A stretch of DNA of 64,000 bases from Candidatus Bathyarchaeota archaeon (GCA_963772455.1 CAVYXJ010000007.1:288001-352000), one strand, 5' to 3'; positions 24,922 through 37,033 are shown, counted from the first letter of the stretch. The notes: generated by a model not told the origin, from the sequence alone. Made by a program: numbers and translations.

Positions 24922-26151
24922 TTAGTTTTTCCATTTTTTTAGTGCGAGAGCAAGTTCCTTGTGGTTTTTGGCATATTCGTCCAGAGTTTTTTCATATAGA
25001 GTTGCGTCGACTGCTTGACGCATTGCTTTGGCGCCATATACTGTGCCTTCAGGATGACCGTGGATACCACCGCCTGCTTGAATAACGAAATCGTTGCCAA
25101 AAGTCTCCATTAGGGCAGGCACCAATCGTGGATGCAAACCGCCGCTGGCAACGGGCAAAACAGGTCTTAATAAACCCAAATCTGATTTGCAAGCAGATAA
25201 ATTCTCGATTACCTCTTCTTTTGTCTCAGACATTTTACCGACAACCGTACCAACATGAAGTTGGTCTACCCCAATTACTCGTGCAACCGTAGCAATGGGT
25301 TTCATAGCGATTCCGTGCAATGGGTTCTTGGTGAAAGCCGCGTGCCCTGCTCGGTGAGCGTGAATGACCAGTTTGAAGTTTTGTTCTCTTAGTGTTTGTA
25401 GCGCGGACCAACCACAAGTTAGAATATCTATCATAACATATTCTCCACCTTGATCAACGACTGTCTGTGCCCGTTTTAGCATGGTTTGTGTTTCGTCGGT
25501 GATGTTTATCATATAGACTTTGCGTTCATTTGTTTCTTCTTGGGCTTTGTCACGACTCTCCAGCGTTTTAGTTAATCGTTCTTCGAAGGGATTAAAACTT
25601 TGACTACTAAGATTCTCATCATCTTTCACGATATCGCAACCGCCAAACCAAGCATCGTATGCGACTTTGGCGTGATCTTTAGTTTCTAACCCAAGTTTAG
25701 GCTTAATAATTGTGCCAACAAAGGGTCGCTTGGGCACTTTTAGAAGTTTTCGGATTCCAGATATACCAAATGCTGGTCCATTGAAACTGCCTAAGAGGTG
25801 TTCGGAGAATTCTATGTCGAGAAGGCGCAGGTTTTTTAGGGCTTTAAGCCCAAAAACGTTGCCTGCAACGCTGCTCAGAATGTTTGGCATGTTGCCTGGT
25901 TCAAAAAGTTCATCTGAATAGGCGATTTTGATTATGCTTCCGTCTATGTTGAAAACGTGTGCTGCCAGCCTTTTAACGTAGGGCTTCTCAGTCGTCAACT
26001 CTGTCCATGTGCCAACGGAACTTTCCGCTGCTACACCGCCTGCAGCTTCTTTCAAGCTGATGCCTTCAGGCTCAACAAAGAAGGTGCAAATTAAATCTGT
26101 TTCTTTGGGCTTGTAAGCTAAATCTACAAAGTCAAGATATTTCAAGAACAA
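24922..26151 (-). CDS. rbcL: RuBisCO form III large subunit
   Basis: AAESSVGTW, KPKLGL, GCDIVKDDE, HAHRAGH, GKM, SGGLHP and GGGIHGHP motifs. Confidence 0.96.
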   Translation of the reverse strand: MFLKYLDFVDLAYKPKETDLICTFFVEPEGISLKEAAGGVAAESSVGTWTELTTEKPYVKRLAAHVFNIDGSIIKIAYSDELFEPGNMPNILSSVAGNVFGLKALKNLRLLDIEFSEHLLGSFNGPAFGISGIRKLLKVPKRPFVGTIIKPKLGLETKDHAKVAYDAWFGGCDIVKDDENLSSQSFNPFEERLTKTLESRDKAQEETNERKVYMINITDETQTMLKRAQTVVDQGGEYVMIDILTCGWSALQTLREQNFKLVIHAHRAGHAAFTKNPLHGIAMKPIATVARVIGVDQLHVGTVVGKMSETKEEVIENLSACKSDLGLLRPVLPVASGGLHPRLVPALMETFGNDFVIQAGGGIHGHPEGTVYGAKAMRQAVDATLYEKTLDEYAKNHKELALALKKWKN

Positions 26152-26221: not shown

Positions 26222-27775
26222 ATGTCTAAAATGGATTTAACCGTTGAAGTTCTAATGATCACCACGGGCGGAAGCAGAATCGCTCTTCTTAGTGAACAAA
26301 GTGCGAACCTTTTAGGTGTACATAGCTCCGATAGAATAAAAATTTCTTTCAAAAACCAAGAGATGATTGCTATCGCAAATATCGCTGATTATTTCCCTCC
26401 AAATCGTATTGGACTTTACCGAGAAACTATTGCTGCCCTTGGGGTTAAAGAGGCTGATTCGGTTAAGGTTGAGTTGGCGGCACTTCCCGAATCGCTATTC
26501 AATATTCGCGCTAAGTTACATGGGGAACGATTGCTTGAGAAAGATATTGTAGCTATTGTAAAGGACGTGGTTGAGAGGCACTTGAGTACGGTTGAAATCG
26601 CTGCATTCCTTACTGCATTAAGTATTCATGGTTTAAGCACAGGCGAAACTGAAGCTTTGTCTAGAGCAATGATTTCTACAGGCAGAACGATTGATTTTGG
26701 CGAAGGACCTATCCTTGACAAACACAGTGTAGGAGGAATCCCGGGCGACAAAACCAGCATGCTCGTTGTACCTATCGTTGCAGCTGCAGGATTCACCATT
26801 CCGAAAACTTCTTCACGAGCAATAACTTCGCCAGCTGGCACGGCAGACAGAGTTGAGACTCTCTGCCCAGTTAATCTATCTATAAAAGAAATTAAAGAAG
26901 TCGTTGCAAAAACTAACGGATGCCTAGTCTGGGGTGGCTCATTGGAGCTTGCGCCAGCCGACGATCTTTTTATCCAAGTTGAATACCCTCTGGGAATTGA
27001 CCCCATGCTTTTACCCTCAATTCTAAGCAAGAAAAAAGCCATCGGAGCTACACATGTAGTCATAGACATTCCAACTGGAATGGGAGCAAAAATCAAAACT
27101 CGAACAGAAGCTTACACTTTAGCTTCGGACTTTGTAGATTTAGGCAAACGTCTAGGATTAAACATTCAATGCGCCCTTACTTACGGTGAACAACCTCTGG
27201 GCTGCGGTATCGGACCAGCTTTGGAAGCACGGGAAGCTCTGACTACTCTAATGGGTGAAGGTCCTCCTGATTTGCGAGAAAAAGCAGTTAGCCTTGCAAG
27301 CATGCTTTTTGAAATGGTAGGCGTGGAAAATCCGCGTCGAATGGCTGAAGACATGATTGATTCAGGTAAAGCAATGAAAAAAATGCGGGAAATTATTGAG
27401 GCTCAGGGAGGCGATCCAACGATCAAGCCTGAAGATCTACCAGTGGGACCTGAGTCGGTTAAAGTGCGATCTCAACATGCTGGCAAAGTGCTGTGGCTTA
27501 GCACGGATGACATTGTAAGGATTGCTCGTGAAGCTGGAGCACCTAAAGAAAAAGGTGCAGGTGTAGTTTTGCATGCAAAGTTGGGTGGCGACGTTCATAA
27601 AAATGGTGTGTTATTTGAAATTTATGCGGAAAGATCAAGCAAATTGGAATCTGCGTTAGAGCTTGCCGGACAATTGTCGCCAATCGTACTTAGCAAGAAG
27701 CCTGAAGAAAAAATGATTCTAGACAAAGTACCAGAAAAAATAACGCATGAAAAAGCGTTTATGTTAGACAGATAA
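26222..27775 (+). CDS. deoA: AMP phosphorylase
   Basis: DKHSVGGIPGDKT, PKTSSRAITSPAGTAD, GIGPALEA and AGAPKEKGAG motifs. Confidence 0.95.
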   Translation: MSKMDLTVEVLMITTGGSRIALLSEQSANLLGVHSSDRIKISFKNQEMIAIANIADYFPPNRIGLYRETIAALGVKEADSVKVELAALPESLFNIRAKLHGERLLEKDIVAIVKDVVERHLSTVEIAAFLTALSIHGLSTGETEALSRAMISTGRTIDFGEGPILDKHSVGGIPGDKTSMLVVPIVAAAGFTIPKTSSRAITSPAGTADRVETLCPVNLSIKEIKEVVAKTNGCLVWGGSLELAPADDLFIQVEYPLGIDPMLLPSILSKKKAIGATHVVIDIPTGMGAKIKTRTEAYTLASDFVDLGKRLGLNIQCALTYGEQPLGCGIGPALEAREALTTLMGEGPPDLREKAVSLASMLFEMVGVENPRRMAEDMIDSGKAMKKMREIIEAQGGDPTIKPEDLPVGPESVKVRSQHAGKVLWLSTDDIVRIAREAGAPKEKGAGVVLHAKLGGDVHKNGVLFEIYAERSSKLESALELAGQLSPIVLSKKPEEKMILDKVPEKITHEKAFMLDR

Positions 27776-30426: not shown

Positions 30427-31851
30427 CTATTTCTTGTTAGTTAGGTATTCATGCATGGCTTTGGCTGCGCGTTTACCTGCGCCCATTGCACTGATGACAG
30501 TGGCTGCGCCTGTTGCAACGTCTCCTCCTGCGTAAACTCCATCTAAACTGGTCTTTCCGACTTCGTTAACGCATATAGTTCCGCGTTTTGGATCGCTTTG
30601 TAATCCGCCTGTTGTGCTTTGGATGATTGGGTTAGGGGTTTGTCCAATTGCGATTATAACAGTGTCGACATCCATGGTGAATTCGCTGCCTGGAACTTCT
30701 CTAACTCCTCTTCTGCCTTTTGCGTCTGGTTCAGTTAGTTCCATTGCGATAACTTTCATGGCTTTAACCCAACCTTTCTCGTCGCCATAGAACTCCATTG
30801 GTGCAGCAAGGAATTTGCAGACTAAGCCTTCTTCTTCTGCATTTTCAATTTCTTCAAGGCGCGCTGGCAATTCATTTCGTGAACGTCGATAAAGCAAGCA
30901 TACTTCACTGCCCAGTCGCATACTGCTTCTTGCACAGTCCATAGCAACGTTTCCTCCGCCGATAACCACGACTTTTTTGCCTAAACGTATTGGAGTGTCG
31001 TATTCTGGAAAAAGATATGCTTTCATGAGGTTAACGCGGATGAGGAATTCATTGGCACTAAAGATTCCTCCAAGGTTTTCCCCTGGGCATCCTGTGAACT
31101 GAGGTAAGCCTGCACCGCTCCCGATGAATACTGCGTCATAACCATTCTTCATAAGCTCAGGAATAGTATGTATTCTACCAATTAGGTTGCCAAGACGAAG
31201 GTCAACGCCTAGATTCTGGACGTAATTAACTTCACCTTGCACAATTGCCTTTGGTAAACGAAACTCTGGGATACCATAAGAAAGCACTCCGCCGCCAACG
31301 TGCAACGCTTCGAACATCGTTATTTTGTGACCGAGCTTAACAAGGTCAGCTGCAACTGTCAAACCTGCTGGACCTGCACCCACAACTGCTACTTTCTTGC
31401 CTGTATCAGGAGCTTTTGGTGGAAGTTGGGAGCCATTGTTTCTTTCCCAGTCTGCAAGGAAACGCTCTAAACGTCCAATGCTAATTGGGTCACCCATCTT
31501 GCCGATAACGCATTTGCTTTGACACTGCACTTCTTGTGGACAAACACGTCCGCAAACAGCAGGCAATGCATTTTTGGACTTAATAGCAGCTATACCTTCT
31601 GCATATTTCTTTTCTTTTATGCATTTGACAAATGTTGGAATAGGAACTTCTACTGGACAACCAGTTCTACATAGTGGATTGGGGCAGCAAAGACACCTAC
31701 TTGCTTCTTCTTGGGCTTCTGCTTCAGTATAACCTAATGCAACTTCACTGAAATTTTTAGCACGAACTTTAGGCTCTTGCTTAGCCATCTCTACTGCTTT
31801 CTTATTCAACTTTGGTTTAGGCTTTGTTTCTGCCACACTTGCAACCTCCAT
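30427..31851 (-). CDS. nfnB: NfnB/SudA (GltD-like) flavoprotein large subunit
   Basis: EASRCLCC, CGRVCPQE, IGRLERF, GAGPAGL, GGGNVAMD and AGGD motifs. Confidence 0.9.
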   Translation of the reverse strand: MEVASVAETKPKPKLNKKAVEMAKQEPKVRAKNFSEVALGYTEAEAQEEASRCLCCPNPLCRTGCPVEVPIPTFVKCIKEKKYAEGIAAIKSKNALPAVCGRVCPQEVQCQSKCVIGKMGDPISIGRLERFLADWERNNGSQLPPKAPDTGKKVAVVGAGPAGLTVAADLVKLGHKITMFEALHVGGGVLSYGIPEFRLPKAIVQGEVNYVQNLGVDLRLGNLIGRIHTIPELMKNGYDAVFIGSGAGLPQFTGCPGENLGGIFSANEFLIRVNLMKAYLFPEYDTPIRLGKKVVVIGGGNVAMDCARSSMRLGSEVCLLYRRSRNELPARLEEIENAEEEGLVCKFLAAPMEFYGDEKGWVKAMKVIAMELTEPDAKGRRGVREVPGSEFTMDVDTVIIAIGQTPNPIIQSTTGGLQSDPKRGTICVNEVGKTSLDGVYAGGDVATGAATVISAMGAGKRAAKAMHEYLTNKK

Positions 31852-32662
31852 TCATTTCCGACAATACTGAACTTAACCTTTCTTCGGGAAGCATCGTTCG
31901 CTGACGTATGATTAACTCATCAAAATCTGTCTTGTGACCGTCAAATTCTGGACCATCCACGCATCCGAACTTCATTTTGCCATCGACTGTAACTCGACAT
32001 ACTCCGCACATGCCCATGCCATCAATCATAATTGGCGTTAAAGTCACAATTGTTGGGATATTGTAGGGCTTGGTGATTTCGCTGACGTCTTTCATCAGGA
32101 TTACTGGACCCATAACTATGCATCGATCGAACTTTTCGGTCTTTAGCAGTTCTTTGAGAAAATCTAAGCCCTTGTAACCTTTTGTGCCGTCGTCTGTTGC
32201 AATATAGACTTTTTCGCTTAGGGCTTTAGCTTCGTTCTCCATCATGATGAACTCTTTGGTACGTGCCCCGAGAACTGTGGTTACTTTGTTACCTGCTTCT
32301 TTCATGGCTTTAGCCTGCAATAGAAGTGGTGCAATCATTATGCTTCCGCCCACACACAGGACTTTGCCGAAGTTTTTCACTTCAGATGGGTTTCCAAGTG
32401 GACCAGTAACGTTGTCGATGCATTCGCCTTGGTTTAACATTCCTAAGTCTTTGGTGGTTTTGCCGACTTCATGGAAAGCAAATGAAACCGTTCCCTTTGC
32501 TGCGTTGTACCCGGAGATTGTTAAGGGAATGCGTTCGCCAGTTTTCCCGTGTATGACAATTAGGAATTGGCCAGCGTGCGATTGAGCGGCAACATCTGGA
32601 GCATCAACTTCAAACAGTTTAATTTTCGGAACAAGTTCTTTTTTACTTATTATTTTGTACGT
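31817..32662 (-). CDS. nfnA: NfnA/SudB small subunit (FAD, [2Fe-2S]); open frame begins ACG-TAC, 281 codons
   Basis: Frame extends upstream of the ORF-track start through YKIISKKEL...AGQF...GERIPLTI...EVGKTT; DGMGMCGVCRV and CVDGPEFDG motifs. Confidence 0.88.
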   Translation of the reverse strand, partial: TYKIISKKELVPKIKLFEVDAPDVAAQSHAGQFLIVIHGKTGERIPLTISGYNAAKGTVSFAFHEVGKTTKDLGMLNQGECIDNVTGPLGNPSEVKNFGKVLCVGGSIMIAPLLLQAKAMKEAGNKVTTVLGARTKEFIMMENEAKALSEKVYIATDDGTKGYKGLDFLKELLKTEKFDRCIVMGPVILMKDVSEITKPYNIPTIVTLTPIMIDGMGMCGVCRVTVDGKMKFGCVDGPEFDGHKTDFDELIIRQRTMLPEERLSSVLSEMNGGCKCGRNKA

Positions 32663-33873
32663 TTTGCAGTCGCCTCCACAGCTACTTCACGTTTTGGTAA
32701 ATTACATATTTTTTTGTGGAATTCATCGAGTTTTGCCTCGAATTCTCCAGCGCATCTGGGTGATTCCTCATAGAGTTCAAATCGATCGAGCAAACCCAGT
32801 TTCTTTAGTGAAACTTGCAGTGCAGCAACGTTGCGCTCTGCTGCATTTCTTCCTTCTTGAAGCTTGCAATCTTTAGCCGAGCAGACAACGCCCATGACAC
32901 CGTCGAATCCACAGTTTAATGCATTGATAATGTGTACGGGATCGAGTGATTTGAAGCATGGAACTTCAAGTGCTAAGACGTTTTTGCCTTCGAAAGCTTT
33001 GTTCGGGTTATCAAGAGCTGAGAACTCAGACCATTGGCATACAAATGCGAGCACCGCTGGTCCTTTGTTTTTAGCTGTTAACTGTGCAAGTGATTTGCCG
33101 TATCGATCAATTACATCTTCAAACTCGAAGCCTTTCACCTGTATAGCGTGATGTGGACAAACCAGTTGGCATGCGCCACAGCCGGTGCATTTTTCTTCAT
33201 TCACCTTGGGGGTTCCAAAAGATTCGAATTCGAGTGCACCATATGGGCAAATGAAGATGCATTTGTCGCATCCAACACATGCTTGTACGTCATAAACTGC
33301 TTTGCGAGAGAACTTTACAACCTTAACTGTATTCTCATCATAACCTAACTGTTTTAGAACGTTGCGTGCAAGAACCAGTCTTCGAGTGTTAATTTTTGTG
33401 CCTTCTTTATAGCGACAGAAGGGATCTTCACATTGAATCGAAACAATATTTTTAACGCCAGAGTTTAAGGCTTCAAAAACAAAGTCTGTTGGAACACGAC
33501 CTGCACATGGCAAACGCAACGCCATGTATTTTTCAACTTTCAATCCTTGTTCTTTCAGGATGTCTTGGACTTCCCCTGTGGAAGGCGAGTTTCCTCGGCA
33601 CATCAAGACAAGTGTGTCAACATTTTTGGCTTTAACCTGTGCCTTTTCAAGGAATTCTGTGAGGTTATCATAAGTGTAATATTGCATTTTTATGGCTGCA
33701 GATGGGCAAGCGCTATAGCATATGCCGCAAACTTGGCAATCTTGACTGTTAATTTCAACTTTGCCGGTTGAATCTGCTTTTATAGCTTCGTATGGGCAGA
33801 TTGATTTGCAGACATAACATCGACTGCACAAGTCTTGATCGATTTCGACTACAGCGAGACATTTTTCACTCAT
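32650..33873 (-). CDS. Tandem (2x[4Fe-4S] ferredoxin + MvhD/FlpD-like domain)x2 protein
   Basis: Four CxxCxxCxxxCP motifs; two MvhD-like units (LMC...LPCAGRV...QC...C and FVCQW...VPC...GFDGV...C...C). Confidence 0.85.
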   Translation of the reverse strand: MSEKCLAVVEIDQDLCSRCYVCKSICPYEAIKADSTGKVEINSQDCQVCGICYSACPSAAIKMQYYTYDNLTEFLEKAQVKAKNVDTLVLMCRGNSPSTGEVQDILKEQGLKVEKYMALRLPCAGRVPTDFVFEALNSGVKNIVSIQCEDPFCRYKEGTKINTRRLVLARNVLKQLGYDENTVKVVKFSRKAVYDVQACVGCDKCIFICPYGALEFESFGTPKVNEEKCTGCGACQLVCPHHAIQVKGFEFEDVIDRYGKSLAQLTAKNKGPAVLAFVCQWSEFSALDNPNKAFEGKNVLALEVPCFKSLDPVHIINALNCGFDGVMGVVCSAKDCKLQEGRNAAERNVAALQVSLKKLGLLDRFELYEESPRCAGEFEAKLDEFHKKICNLPKREVAVEATAKRTK

Positions 33874-33978
33874 TTTGAAACCTCTTTTTACGCTTTTGCG
33901 CTGTTACCTTAATGCTTTGCTTGATAGCTTAAGCTAATCGGAAGCGAAAAGTGTTAAGAATATTATAATCCTTTCTCT

Positions 33979-34911
33979 TTATTTTTTGTAATACGGTCGT
34001 CTAATGTAACTATAGGCTTCCAACGCGGCAGTGATGCCTTGTCCTACAGCTGTTCCCACTTGCTTGATTGGGTGATTAGTTACATCGCCAGCTGCAAAAA
34101 CTCCCGGAAGATTTGTATGTTGATGAATATCGATTTTGATATAACCGTGCTCGTCCGTTTCGACACCGCTGGCTTTGGCGATTTGACTATTAGGTGCTTC
34201 ACCGACCTGCACAAAAACCGCATCAACTACTAATTCACTTGTTTGCTTGGTAACGTTATCGATTATAGTTACGGTTCTTACTTGTTTATCCCCTTTAATT
34301 TCTTGAATCTCGGAGTTCCAAAGTGTTGTTACATTGCCCTTAGCTGCTATATCAGTCACCAACGATTCTTCTGCCCTGAAAGCTCCCCGTCTATGAATCA
34401 CAGTGACTTGTCCAGCAAGACCTGAAAGATAAAGTGTAGTAATGCAAGCCGAGTTTCCACCACCGACTACAAGCACTTTTTTTCCCTTAAAAAATGGCCC
34501 GTCGCATACACCACAATAGCTCACCCCTCTTCCGCGGAACTCTTTTTCGCCTTTAACCCCAACTTCCTTGTAATGTGAACCCATCGAAAAAATTATTGCA
34601 CTAGCTTCATAGGATGCATTTGAAGTTTTTACAATTTTCTTTTCGCCAGTAAGATCCAATTCGGTAACGGGCTCTAATTCGTGAATGACTGCGCCGACTT
34701 TTTTGCAGTGATTAGTCATTTTTTCTGCAAGCTCTCCACCGCTTATCTCCGCGAACCCAGGGTAATTAACCACAATTGAGGCATCTGAGATTGTGCCGCC
34801 TGGTAATTTTTCATCTAAAATTAATGTTTTTAATCCGCTACGAACTGTATATATTCCAGCTGATAAGCCAGCGGAGCCTGCACCAATAATTATGACATCC
34901 CAGTTCTCCAT
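33979..34911 (-). CDS. trxB: Thioredoxin reductase
   Basis: GAGSAGLSAG, GRGVSYCGVCDG, GGGNSA, HRR and FAAGDV motifs. Confidence 0.95.
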   Translation of the reverse strand: MENWDVIIIGAGSAGLSAGIYTVRSGLKTLILDEKLPGGTISDASIVVNYPGFAEISGGELAEKMTNHCKKVGAVIHELEPVTELDLTGEKKIVKTSNASYEASAIIFSMGSHYKEVGVKGEKEFRGRGVSYCGVCDGPFFKGKKVLVVGGGNSACITTLYLSGLAGQVTVIHRRGAFRAEESLVTDIAAKGNVTTLWNSEIQEIKGDKQVRTVTIIDNVTKQTSELVVDAVFVQVGEAPNSQIAKASGVETDEHGYIKIDIHQHTNLPGVFAAGDVTNHPIKQVGTAVGQGITAALEAYSYIRRPYYKK

Positions 34912-35272
34912 AAATAAGTCATCTCTTTATGGTGAATAGTTGGCGAAGAAGTTTATGAATTGTTCGTCTACTTTGGTCAGTTATTTCAAAATGGCTATAA
35001 TGTTTTCTAGTAAGACCATCTTATTAGAAGTTGCAACTGATCTTTTCCAACTACTTTTCAAAAACTGTGGAAATAACCCCGATTAAAAAAAACCAGCTTA
35101 AATCAACAAAACAAAAGAGTTGTTGTTGCTGCTGTTGCAACTCACTCCCAGCACAGCAGTTGCAACAATCACTCCAACAAAATATTCGAACTTAGATATG
35201 CCTCTTAATTCCAATAAGCTGATAAGCCCGAAATCAATTAAATTTCTAACAAGTATTTTTGAAGGGTTTGTT

Positions 35273-37033
35273 ATGGCGAAATATAGGTGTACGGTTTGCA
35301 ATTGGGTTTATGATGATGCTAAAGAAAAAGTAAAGTTTACTGATTTGCCCAAAGAATGGGTTTGCCCAGTTTGTGGAGCACCCAAATCCGCATTTGTGCT
35401 ATTAGCTGAGGGGCATGAAGAAGAGAAAAAAGCTGATCACACAGTTTCCGACGTGTTGATTAACCAGATTGCTGAGTGGGGGGTACAATACGTTTTCGGC
35501 ATTCCTGGAACCTCTACACTGGGTATTGTAGATGCAATTCGCAAAAGTAATGGCAAAATAAAGTATGTGCAGGTTCGCCATGAAGAAACAGCGGCTTTTA
35601 TGGCGTCAGCTTACGGCAAATTAACTGGGCATGTAGCAGCTTGCCTTGGCATTTCTGGTCCAGGCGCAACTAACCTAGTAACTGGCTTGTATGATGCACA
35701 ACTGGATCATTCACCTGTTTTAGCGTTGACAGGCATGGTTCCCCGCAAACTCATGGGTCAAGGTGCAATACAGGAGATTGACCAACAGGCATTCTTTGAA
35801 CCCTTGACCGTTTATAACAAGACCTTGATGACCGAAGACCAAACCACCTCCTTGGCTACGTTGGCGATTAAGCATGCTCTACTGAATCAGGGTGTAGCGC
35901 ACATTGGAATTCCCAACGACGTACAAAAACTGCCATACGAAACGGAGATTTTACCTTTTGAAGGCAGGATGCCCAACATGGCCTATGGACAAGAAGACGG
36001 AATAATTGAGAAAGCAGCAAAAGTTGTTGATTCCGCCAGCAGACCCGTGATTCTAGCTGGTTTTGGAGCAAGAGGACAAGGCACTAAACTTTTGAAATTG
36101 GCATCGAAGATTGGTGCACCAATTATAGCGACTTTCCGAGCAAAAGGAGTCGTGGACGAAAATGAACCACTTTATGTTGGATGCCACGGTGGAGTTGGTT
36201 CAACGTCTGCAGGAGCCCTTATGGAGGAAGCAGATTTGCTAATAGCAATTGGTTCTTCATTTGCAGATTTATCGCAGATTCCCAAGAAACGCACCGTACA
36301 GATTGACATTAACCCACTTATGATTGCACGTCGGTACCCAGTTGAAGTGAGTTTACTTGGCAACAGCGCCGTGTTGATTCCTAAGTTGACAGAGAAAGTT
36401 CAACAGAAAACAAACGAGAAATATTTGGCTGAAGTTACTCGATTAAAGCAGGAGTGGCAAATTCAACTTGAAAAAGAAGCCGACGCAACAATGAAACCAA
36501 TCAGACCCCAGTACATCATCAAAGTACTTAACGAAAAAATTGCGGATAACGCTGTGATTTCATTGGACGTTGGTGAGAACTGCTGGTGGTTTGGCAGAAA
36601 CTTTAGAATGAAGAAGTCTCAGAAGATGGTTATGAGCGGTACTTTGGCAACTATGGGTTTTGGTTTACCTGGAGCTTTAGCAGCGGCGCTAGCTTATCCT
36701 GAGAGACAGATAGTCTGTTTAACTGGCGACGGCGGCTTAACGATGGTTCTGGGCGATTTCTTAACAGCACTCAAGTACAATTTGCCCGTAAAAGTGTTCG
36801 TCATAAACAACAAGCGACTGGGCATGATCATGCAAGAGCAAAAAGTTGAGGGATACGAGAGCTCACAAACTGATCTCTTCGATTACAGTTTCGCCGACTT
36901 CGCCGAACATGCAGGTGGCGTGGGCATCAAAGTTACTGATCCAAGCCAGCTTGAAGCAGCAGTTGACAAAGCACTCAAAGCCACCAAACCTACAATAGTA
37001 GACATAGACACTGACCCAAGAAGATTCTTCTAA
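35273..37033 (+). CDS. Rubredoxin fused to a TPP-dependent pyruvate oxidase-like enzyme
   Basis: CTVCNWVYD...[10 protein letters not shown] rubredoxin; FGIPG, VRHEE, GPGATN and GDGG...NN TPP motifs; start moved to the ATG at 35273. Confidence 0.88.

Follow-up and report, generated by a model that had tools for sequence, protein, structure and literature searches.

The locus considered here raises the question of what a protein made of two iron-sulfur (Fe-S) modules in tandem does immediately ahead of, and possibly overlapping, the genes of the bifurcating enzyme NfnAB. It lies in a 64,000-nucleotide (nt) stretch of DNA (the window; C7:288001-352000) of a Candidatus Bathyarchaeota archaeon, whose genome comprises 2.45 Mb in 24 contigs with a completeness of 92%. 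Four genes form a run on the minus strand at 30427..34911, at the positions first noted, the second of them being named dMvhD here for its tandem (ferredoxin + MvhD) product of 407 amino acids (aa):

33979-34911, minus strand: trxB, a low-molecular-weight thioredoxin reductase of 310 aa (TIGR01292)
33874..33978, minus strand: spacer of 105 nt between trxB and dMvhD, with an A/T-rich 'gattataata' and an 'agagg'
32650-33873, minus strand: dMvhD, 407 aa (PF02662 twice, Fer4 four times)
31817..32662, minus strand: nfnA, 281 aa when read from an ACG codon, with the ERIPLT FAD strand, Asp/Cys3 [2Fe-2S] ligands and an altered nucleotide motif
30427-31851, minus strand: nfnB, 474 aa, with two [4Fe-4S] motifs, Arg201 and Arg333 (P. 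furiosus numbering) and the YRRSR NADPH motif

The answer proposed below, for which the chances appear evenly balanced, is that dMvhD is a third, purely Fe-S subunit of a distinct NfnAB subfamily, wiring the NfnA FAD to an Hdr/Mvh-type module. The composition of the run given by the initial annotation, that is trxB, a 407-aa double ferredoxin/MvhD protein, nfnA and nfnB on the same strand, was confirmed by Pfam and NCBIfam. As to the two overlaps that it reported, nfnA lies directly upstream of nfnB and overlaps it by 35 nt, while dMvhD and nfnA overlap, by 13 nt, only if nfnA starts at an ACG at 32660-32662. The 'agagg' of the spacer is a ribosome-binding-like site, 8 nt ahead of the dMvhD ATG, and the spacer sequence leaves room for a possible separate promoter.

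dMvhD contains two FlpD/MvhD stretches in Pfam (PF02662, E 3.7e-36), scoring 78.4 and 51.4 bits for a cut-off of 22.3, and four Fer4 stretches, which together make up four domains, the second ferredoxin domain including a loop that is of importance for the complex model described below:

33676..33849, minus strand: ferredoxin domain 1, residues 9-66 (Cys 16, 19, 22, 26, 46, 49, 52, 56)
33313..33621, minus strand: MvhD-like domain 1, residues 85-187 (Cys 92, 123, 148, 153)
33124..33300, minus strand: ferredoxin domain 2, residues 192-250 (Cys 199, 202, 205, 209, 229, 232, 235, 239)
33211..33228, minus strand: loop F216-T221 (FESFGT), which separates the cluster motifs within ferredoxin domain 2 (complex model)
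32698..33060, minus strand: MvhD-like domain 2, residues 272-392 (Cys 279, 306, 331, 336)

All 24 cluster cysteines, eight per ferredoxin domain and four per MvhD domain, are invariant in 26 sequences sharing 38-85% identity with that of the window, and in 12 distant representatives as well. Those of the MvhD domains align with the cysteines of the solved chains 5odc_D and 7bkb_F (C92 by eye only), so that both modules carry the [2Fe-2S] ligands expected of an MvhD, if, as we presume, these four residues are the ligands. Judging from its ligands, dMvhD could hold four [4Fe-4S] and two [2Fe-2S] clusters. Its AlphaFold (AF2) model, with a predicted local distance difference test (pLDDT) of 82.6 and a predicted TM-score (pTM) of 0.81, has MvhD chains as top Foldseek matches (5odc_D, 8rvu_F, 7bkb_F; TM-score 0.76-0.80 on the target). 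The best NCBIfam match is the C-terminus of HdrA2, residues 192-394 aligning on positions 572-773 of 777 (E 8.5e-52). Nevertheless, dMvhD is not an HdrA, since the HdrA2 profile is matched over its C-terminal 200 positions only (176 bits for a cut-off of 1100), nor is it a polyferredoxin of the MvhB/VhuB type (NF045874, 48.6 bits for a cut-off of 600), its ferredoxin and MvhD domains alternating along the chain. dMvhD consists of two copies of the [ferredoxin + MvhD] module found at the C-terminus of HdrA2-type HdrA proteins.

The neighbours of dMvhD are clearly assigned. NfnA matches NF004862 with 349.5 bits (cut-off 220) and conserves the ERIPLT FAD strand as well as the DGMGMCGVCRV...CVDGP Asp/Cys3 site of the [2Fe-2S] cluster, and NfnB matches TIGR01316 with 578.4 bits (cut-off 471.75). 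According to section 14 of PMC12221290, the hallmarks of a bifurcating NfnB are a long N-terminus before the first [4Fe-4S] Cys, Arg201, Arg333 and an nfnA gene upstream. The NfnB of the window begins 11 residues ahead of the start of P. furiosus NfnI-B, with its first Cys at C53 compared to Cys42, and keeps both arginines (P. furiosus numbering), the segments PEFRLPK and ELPARLEE corresponding to PEFRLPK and EMTAREEE of 5jca_L. Besides, section 8 of PMC6405883 gives RCx2Cx4Cx3CPV and GRVCPQExQCx3C...Gx2ER as motifs of NfnB, and the two are present as RCLCCPNPLCRTGCPV and GRVCPQEVQCQSKC...GRLER, with a second spacer of 11 residues instead of 13. On these residues, the NfnB of the window retains every bifurcation hallmark. 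TrxB matches TIGR01292 with 344.9 bits, barely over the cut-off of 343.45, and contains CGVC, GGGNSA and HRRGAFRA, which we take to be the redox pair and the motifs of an ordinary NADPH-type enzyme.

The association of these genes is widely conserved. A word-index search returned 1492 dMvhD relatives, the best 120 of the 1492 being 401-414 aa long and 80-97% identical, and the public relatives are labelled Bathyarchaeia or Bathyarchaeota. Among 1.84 billion representatives, 49 match dMvhD at E <= 1e-30, including about 17 double modules that are complete (365-408 aa). Of 401 genomes of the phylum, 28 contain a full-length match, in addition to one in which it is split over two contigs, all belonging to the same class, and the 34 other phylum genomes with matches have single modules within HdrA-type frames of 700-1200 aa. 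Within 1.5-kb flanks of the 28 full-length loci, nfnA comes next in 27, nfnB is found in 26 and trxB lies ahead in 16. In the same line, de novo clustering of the genes within 6-kb flanks of 80 species loci recovered dMvhD in 79, nfnA in 75, trxB in 74 and nfnB in 72, the next-ranked cluster being a pyruvate-oxidase-like gene with 32. The order trxB-dMvhD-nfnA-nfnB holds in 64 of these 80 loci; of the 16 exceptions, nine are truncated at a contig end and seven do not have trxB upstream. According to the unchecked labels of the submitters, 72 of the loci belong to Bathyarchaeota/Bathyarchaeia, four to Methanomassiliicoccales, one to Limnocylindrales and three to an 'uncultured archaeon'. The linkage of dMvhD homologues to nfnAB is thus found well outside the window (27/28 phylum loci, 75/80 species loci), and the arrangement recurs far beyond chance. 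The window's genome has three NfnAB pairs, dMvhD accompanying only that of the window, and the window-type NfnB is the one NfnB found in three other genomes (G077, G013, G061). As a separate observation, one metagenome-assembled genome has a second nfnB copy with two in-frame stops (L091:8020-9438), which is likely to reflect either the decay of a duplicate or faulty assembly.

A physical interaction between dMvhD and the Nfn subunits is supported by structure prediction. A complex of NfnB, NfnA and residues 186-407 of dMvhD (module 2) was modelled with an alignment for each chain, and its interaction prediction score from aligned errors (ipSAE) was 0.71 (0.70, 0.71 and 0.72 in the individual runs) compared to 0.39 for the best control; among solved complexes 116 of 157 reach the mark, and among mismatched pairs 2 of 215. 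The runs share at least 73% of their contacts, with a partner pLDDT of at least 74. Two partner-swap controls scored 0.00, and the control at 0.39 is the one in which NfnB was swapped out; because this control survived the loss of NfnB, the interface would lie mainly on NfnA. It is modelled on NfnA residues 106-108, 132-138, 155-158 and 186-193, the lowest-error contacts linking the dMvhD loop 216-221 to NfnA 106, 133-134, 155-157, 165 and 186-193, whereas NfnB is contacted at residues 280-361 only and not at its Fe-S domain. The model thereby supports the binding of module 2 to NfnA. The contacted segments presumably line the nucleotide cleft, if our understanding of the ferredoxin-NADP+ reductase (FNR) fold applies to NfnA. 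Section 8 of the review PMC6405883 places the binding of NADH at the FAD of NfnA.

One of the contacted segments differs from that of characterized enzymes:

32327..32350, minus strand: NfnA residues 105-112, which read GGSIMIAP where solved NfnA has GGGVG(I/V)A, with G106-I108 in the modelled interface

The solved NfnI and T. maritima NfnA have GGGVG(V/I)A, and the paralogues of the window's own genome have CGGVGTA, whereas MvhD-linked NfnA has M, F or W instead of the third Gly of GGGVG. In 48 rows, 45 of them different, an Fd-MvhD gene is adjacent in 26 of 26 cases when this residue is M, in none of 15 when it is G and in one of seven when it is F. Since the non-Gly residue corresponds to a single change on the NfnA tree, it is a trait of the subfamily rather than the result of repeated convergence.

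These data bear on an alternative in which dMvhD would be a dedicated polyferredoxin, that is a bound low-potential carrier serving a classical NADH-dependent Nfn at the distal [4Fe-4S] cluster of NfnB, with no link to Hdr. dMvhD has no domains other than ferredoxin and MvhD modules, the polyferredoxins MvhB and FwdF are among its best matches to solved proteins, and the complex model covers module 2 only. Moreover, NfnB keeps all bifurcation hallmarks and is the sole NfnB in the three genomes mentioned above, so that it would be expected to fill the ordinary Nfn role there. However, module 2 is modelled on NfnA and not on the NfnB Fe-S domain, the nucleotide motif of NfnA is altered specifically in MvhD-linked pairs, and hdr genes recur next to the cluster, as developed hereafter. 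A polyferredoxin role consequently appears unlikely.

If dMvhD wires NfnA to another module, the next question is which one. The initial annotation had reported no hdrA or mvhAG in the window, and the genome-wide matches bear this out: those of HdrA, [NiFe]-hydrogenase and FlpD all lie elsewhere, except for dMvhD itself. The sole HdrA of the genome is an 821-aa HdrA-Fd-MvhD fusion on contig C13, adjoining a polyferredoxin-like gene, and an hdrC-hdrB-mvhG-mvhA cluster stands on C7, 200 kb from the window. This cluster has no separate mvhD, the MvhD domains of the genome being those of HdrA and dMvhD only.

Other genomes bring Hdr genes into direct contact with this type of Nfn. In G141 and G264, a 712-aa HdrA-Fd-MvhD takes the place of dMvhD, its stop overlapping an nfnA with the motif GGGVMVAP; the genes run hdrA'-HdrA-Fd-MvhD-nfnA-nfnB, with gdh and an hdrA-like gene of 446 aa ahead, and hdrB, hdrC and a second hdrA-mvhD follow nfnB on the opposite strand. 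In G438, the order is hdrC-hdrB-hdrA'-HdrA-MvhD-gdh-nfnA(F-type)-nfnB. Among the 80 species loci, 15 have an hdrD-like gene (Fer4 and two CCG domains) as the immediate upstream neighbour of trxB, and 12 of these 15 (12/80) also have a divergent HdrA-MvhD gene. In all 12, the four Cys of the HdrA's MvhD domain are replaced (D, T/S, G, R) while the 8 Cys of its ferredoxin domain are kept:

L094, L096-L098, L101, L104, L108-L110, L112, L090 and L119 (e.g. L098:1122-3497, minus strand): HdrA-MvhD with a Cys-less MvhD domain

Besides, an 'SFG.P' loop is common to module 2 of dMvhD and to the two Nfn-adjacent HdrA ferredoxin domains, whereas neither module 1 nor any of four other Fd-MvhD modules has it. 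The Hdr-type partner put forward in the initial annotation is thus supported by gene context (an HdrA-Fd-MvhD at the dMvhD position in G141/G264; hdrD and hdrA-mvhD flanking in 12-15 of 80 loci), from which the partner itself is presumed. Apart from this, three lineages have gdh, coding for glutamate dehydrogenase, inside or next to their M/F-type nfnAB clusters (L155:550-1830, L158:6020-7366, L159:6250-7596), where it is a possible source of NADPH.

It has also to be considered that the far end of the wire could be the [NiFe] hydrogenase MvhAG instead of Hdr, the assembly being then an H2:NADP+ (ferredoxin) oxidoreductase. MvhD docks on MvhG in the solved Mvh-Hdr complexes, as indicated by the titles of 5odc and 8rvu, and the hdrC-hdrB-mvhG-mvhA cluster of the genome has no mvhD of its own, HdrA and dMvhD being the only proteins of the genome with MvhD domains. 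A distant branch of the double-module family points the same way. A search with P0125, a protein sharing 41% identity with the window's dMvhD, gave 80 metagenome loci of this branch (L160-L239), in which the gene directly downstream on the same strand is metV in 48, nfnA in 19, hdrA' in one and another in four, the contig ending in eight. Directly upstream are a single mvhD (26), trxB (7), nfnB (2), mvhA (1), another or no recognized gene (32) or a contig end (12), and one locus (L192:105-5723) reads mvhG-mvhA...mvhD-dMvhD-metV-hypF. This suggests that the distant branch is a hydrogenase-to-methylene-tetrahydrofolate-reductase wire, the window's subfamily being the NfnAB-specific one of a general family of flavoenzyme connectors. 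In the 80 species loci, however, the nfnAB-type cluster has no linked hydrogenase gene, a single Oxidored_q6 small-subunit-like gene being present 3 kb downstream in L101, and the genes that recur beside nfnAB are hdr genes. A hydrogenase as partner at the window is accordingly held to be quite improbable. A related gene observed in the course of this comparison is a 686-aa fusion of an NfnB-like flavoprotein (Fer4_20 and Pyr_redox_2) with a ferredoxin and an MvhD module in G228 (L157:5406-7463, minus strand), which adjoins an FrhB-like gene and is divergent from metV-metF.

The thioredoxin branch that the initial annotation envisaged as the other possible partner is supported as far as linkage is concerned, trxB being as conserved as nfnAB (74/80), but the motifs of TrxB are those of an ordinary NADPH-type enzyme. 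This leads to the last alternative regarding function, in which the four genes would merely be co-regulated for redox homeostasis, Nfn making NADPH for TrxB and dMvhD being a soluble carrier outside any stable complex. The retention of an NADPH-type trxB with the cluster and the 105-nt spacer that separates it from dMvhD are compatible with such a view. It is made very improbable by the 13-nt overlap between the dMvhD stop and the nfnA start, the ribosome-binding site of nfnA being inside dMvhD, by the complex model, which passed its controls, and by the NfnA motif change, which follows MvhD linkage. As a side observation, the only WCGPC thioredoxin-like open reading frame of 70-260 aa in the genome lies about 4 kb from the HdrA-MvhD gene (G000:C13:38590-38919, minus strand).

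The overlap just mentioned depends on where nfnA begins. Its frame is open from 32686 and the first ATG, GTG or TTG is that of Met83 at 32440, whereas the family profile alignment of NfnA begins far upstream, at the Tyr that follows an ACG:

32660-32662, minus strand: ACG, where relatives start nfnA with ATG, GTG or TTG
32673..32677, minus strand: GGAGG, a Shine-Dalgarno-like site for nfnA within the dMvhD frame, 10 nt ahead of the ACG

The GGAGG site is kept at a spacing of 9-10 nt in ACG and ATG lineages alike. In the 77 of 80 species loci with a readable junction (L045-L124 junctions), the codon at the start position is ACG in 37, ATG in 26, GTG in five, TTG in two and CTG in two, the register being uncertain in five, and no canonical start exists within -3 to +5 codons in 33 of the 37 ACG loci. 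Across 38 ACG sequences, the median dN/dS is 0.09 for nfnA codons 9-82, compared to 0.06 for codons 83-270, and none of the 38 has a stop in codons 9-82. Because of this low dN/dS and the absence of stops, the N-terminal part of NfnA must be translated and a start at Met83 is unlikely. dMvhD belongs to a translationally coupled unit with nfnA and nfnB, and the initiation of nfnA at the ACG, coupled to the translation of dMvhD, is the explanation that is favored, although by no great measure. Literature searches returned nothing relevant on ACG starts in archaea.

That NfnA does not begin at the ACG, arising instead from a -1 frameshift fusion from the dMvhD frame, from a Met83 start or from C-to-U editing of the mRNA, is considered somewhat unlikely. 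ACG is not among the start codons of translation table 11, which speaks for such routes, and an A-AAA ahead of the window's dMvhD stop would permit tRNA-Lys slippage. However, this slippery sequence is not conserved (ACA GAA TAA in L013, GTA TAA in L093), and the -1 frameshift was rejected, the slip sites varying between loci. Nor was a longer fused dMvhD-NfnA homologue found at E <= 1e-40 among 4574 candidates, which is weak evidence against a fusion. An apparent fusion in G390 (L026, G390:C95; open frame of 720 aa/712 aa) proved to be an artefact caused by a run of N that bridges trxB and dMvhD, dMvhD itself ending normally. As regards editing, an RNA-library contig of a relative spans the site with no change listed at 32660-32662, a weak indication since 10 of its 11 differences are listed. 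One metatranscriptome run contained 5% of the sampled words and its contigs, which come from relatives (none of 18 pieces being at least 99% alike), covered 24 of 30 bins, the contig across the dMvhD/nfnA junction measuring 308 nt. These contigs demonstrate neither a single transcript nor expression in this organism, and no significance attaches to the gaps in their coverage. Should the ACG start be correct, gene callers would shorten nfnA to 207 aa or overlook it, and it would be a rare natural case for studies of archaeal start-codon selection.

Under the proposal that dMvhD is a third subunit of NfnAB, the following path for electrons can be envisaged. NADPH would be oxidized at the bifurcating FAD of NfnB, from which the low-potential electron would pass through the two [4Fe-4S] clusters of NfnB to ferredoxin, and the high-potential electron through the [2Fe-2S] cluster of NfnA to the NfnA FAD. 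From this FAD, it would be delivered to ferredoxin domain 2 of dMvhD and its chain of clusters, in place of or besides NAD+, ferredoxin domain 2 being predicted to dock on NfnA over the glycine-rich motif and the strands of the nucleotide domain. The chain would end at an Hdr/Mvh-type module, possibly the genome's HdrA-MvhD with HdrBC, or HdrD in other lineages. Such a path would couple NADPH to a disulfide-reducing branch, the reverse direction being possible too, and TrxB, as an ordinary NADPH-type thioredoxin reductase, would draw on the same NADPH pool. In this scheme, we infer the loss of NAD(H) use, the partner at the far end, the direction of flow and bifurcation by the dMvhD-Nfn enzyme itself.

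Several points weigh against this scheme. The complex score is the model's own confidence and concerns module 2 only, and the contacted surface of NfnA is taken as an NAD(H) site on the basis of the FNR fold together with PMC6405883. In the same review, section 8 describes the NAD site of NfnA as poorly conserved anyway. As to the motif change, the F-type NfnA has no adjacent MvhD gene in six of seven rows, the dMvhD-linked pairs do not form one clade on the NfnB tree (four changes), and the independent contrasts between NfnA residue and MvhD linkage amount to three pairs on the NfnB tree and two on the NfnA tree, which are too few for a statistical test. Since the window-type Nfn is the sole one in G077, G013 and G061, a loss of NAD(H) use would leave these organisms with no classical Nfn. 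The genome of the window has no hdrD, and its HdrA, on another contig, has an intact MvhD domain. Finally, the pairing of the distant branch with metV (48 loci, compared to 19 with nfnA, out of 80) makes the double-module family a general connector, whose partner at the window is only a presumed one. The full picture is put forward as a tentative one that is rather doubtful as a whole: an Nfn whose free NAD+ has been replaced by an Fe-S wire docked in the nucleotide cleft of NfnA, with NfnB and HdrA, both bifurcating, connected in series between NADPH, ferredoxin and a disulfide, and with a conserved initiation of nfnA at ACG in about half of the lineages.

Among the known systems that come closest to the window's enzyme are the NfnAB/NfnSL of T. 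maritima (4YLF) and NfnI of P. furiosus (5JCA), with a similarity, judged by eye, of about 64% for NfnB and about 50% for NfnA (E 9.4e-164 and 1.3e-75). All Fe-S motifs, the ERxPxT FAD strand, Arg201, Arg333, the long N-terminus and the order nfnA-nfnB are shared with them. Unlike them, the unit of the window adds the gene of a third Fe-S subunit, has GGSIM instead of GGGVG in NfnA and has a ferredoxin domain modelled on the surface of this motif, whereas the classical Nfn is a two-subunit enzyme that works with NAD+ and ferredoxin in free form. Each module of dMvhD resembles the C-terminus of HdrA2 of Methanosarcina acetivorans and of other HdrA-ferredoxin-MvhD fusions, and its fold is like that of MvhD in the Mvh-Hdr complex (5ODC; TM-score on the target 0.78). 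In contrast to both, dMvhD has no HdrA flavoprotein core, its module is doubled and its neighbour is NfnAB and not HdrBC. A likeness also exists with FlxABCD-HdrABC of Desulfovibrio, where an NfnA/PyrK-like NAD(P)H flavoprotein and the MvhD-like FlxD stand beside HdrABC, but which is not known to include an NfnB-type bifurcating subunit or a double module.

MetFV-HdrABC-MvhD of Moorella thermoacetica, which PMC6085437 lists, likewise places an MvhD-type adaptor between a flavoenzyme module and Hdr. It is echoed by the distant dMvhD branch, whose next gene downstream is metV in 48 of the 80 loci, whereas at the window NfnAB takes the part of the flavoenzyme and the adaptor, being a double module, brings its own ferredoxin domains. 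In the class II benzoyl-CoA reductase, bioRxiv 10.64898/2026.04.10.717634 presents BamF as an MvhD homologue bridging flavin-based bifurcating/confurcating and HdrA-like modules, but its partners are BamGHI and BamED, and BamF has a single [2Fe-2S] cluster along with extra Rossmann and winged helix-turn-helix parts. Section 14 of bioRxiv 10.1101/2021.09.25.461819 reports HdrA9-11 with an NfnB-like insertion in ANME-1 (anaerobic methanotrophic archaea), combining Nfn and Hdr flavoprotein modules with NADPH as the proposed carrier; there, NfnB is inserted in HdrA as one polypeptide, whereas the NfnAB of the window is separate and would be joined by an Fe-S adaptor. No description of the arrangement trxB-dMvhD-nfnA-nfnB was found by full-text searches on Nfn, MvhD and Bathyarchaeia, supplements not being covered, and Tables S2-S13 of PMC12221290 as well as the supplements of PMC9012536 might list similar neighbourhoods. 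As far as these searches go, the dMvhD-Nfn enzyme has not yet been described.

Beyond the cluster itself, three other genes of the window can be mentioned:

35120-37033, plus strand: thiamine-diphosphate enzyme resembling pyruvate oxidase and beginning with a rubredoxin domain, divergent from trxB, with homologous genes in 32 of the 80 species loci
24922-26151, minus strand: RuBisCO large-subunit homologue
26222-27775, plus strand: nucleoside/AMP-phosphorylase-like gene (Glycos_transf_3), divergent from the preceding one

The latter two form a pair that fits what we take to be the archaeal AMP-salvage pathway.

Until now, Nfn has been regarded as the simplest bifurcating enzyme, with two subunits and three soluble substrates. 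If the proposal is true, a three-subunit form makes the Nfn core a plug-in NADPH module of larger Hdr/Mvh-type machines, for which the model offers a docking hypothesis, namely the insertion of a ferredoxin loop in the nucleotide cleft of NfnA. In some Bathyarchaeia, an uncultured group that is very abundant in sediments and peat, no Nfn other than the dMvhD-type was found, and metabolic reconstructions of this group would then change in the way the NADPH, ferredoxin and thiol/disulfide pools are connected.

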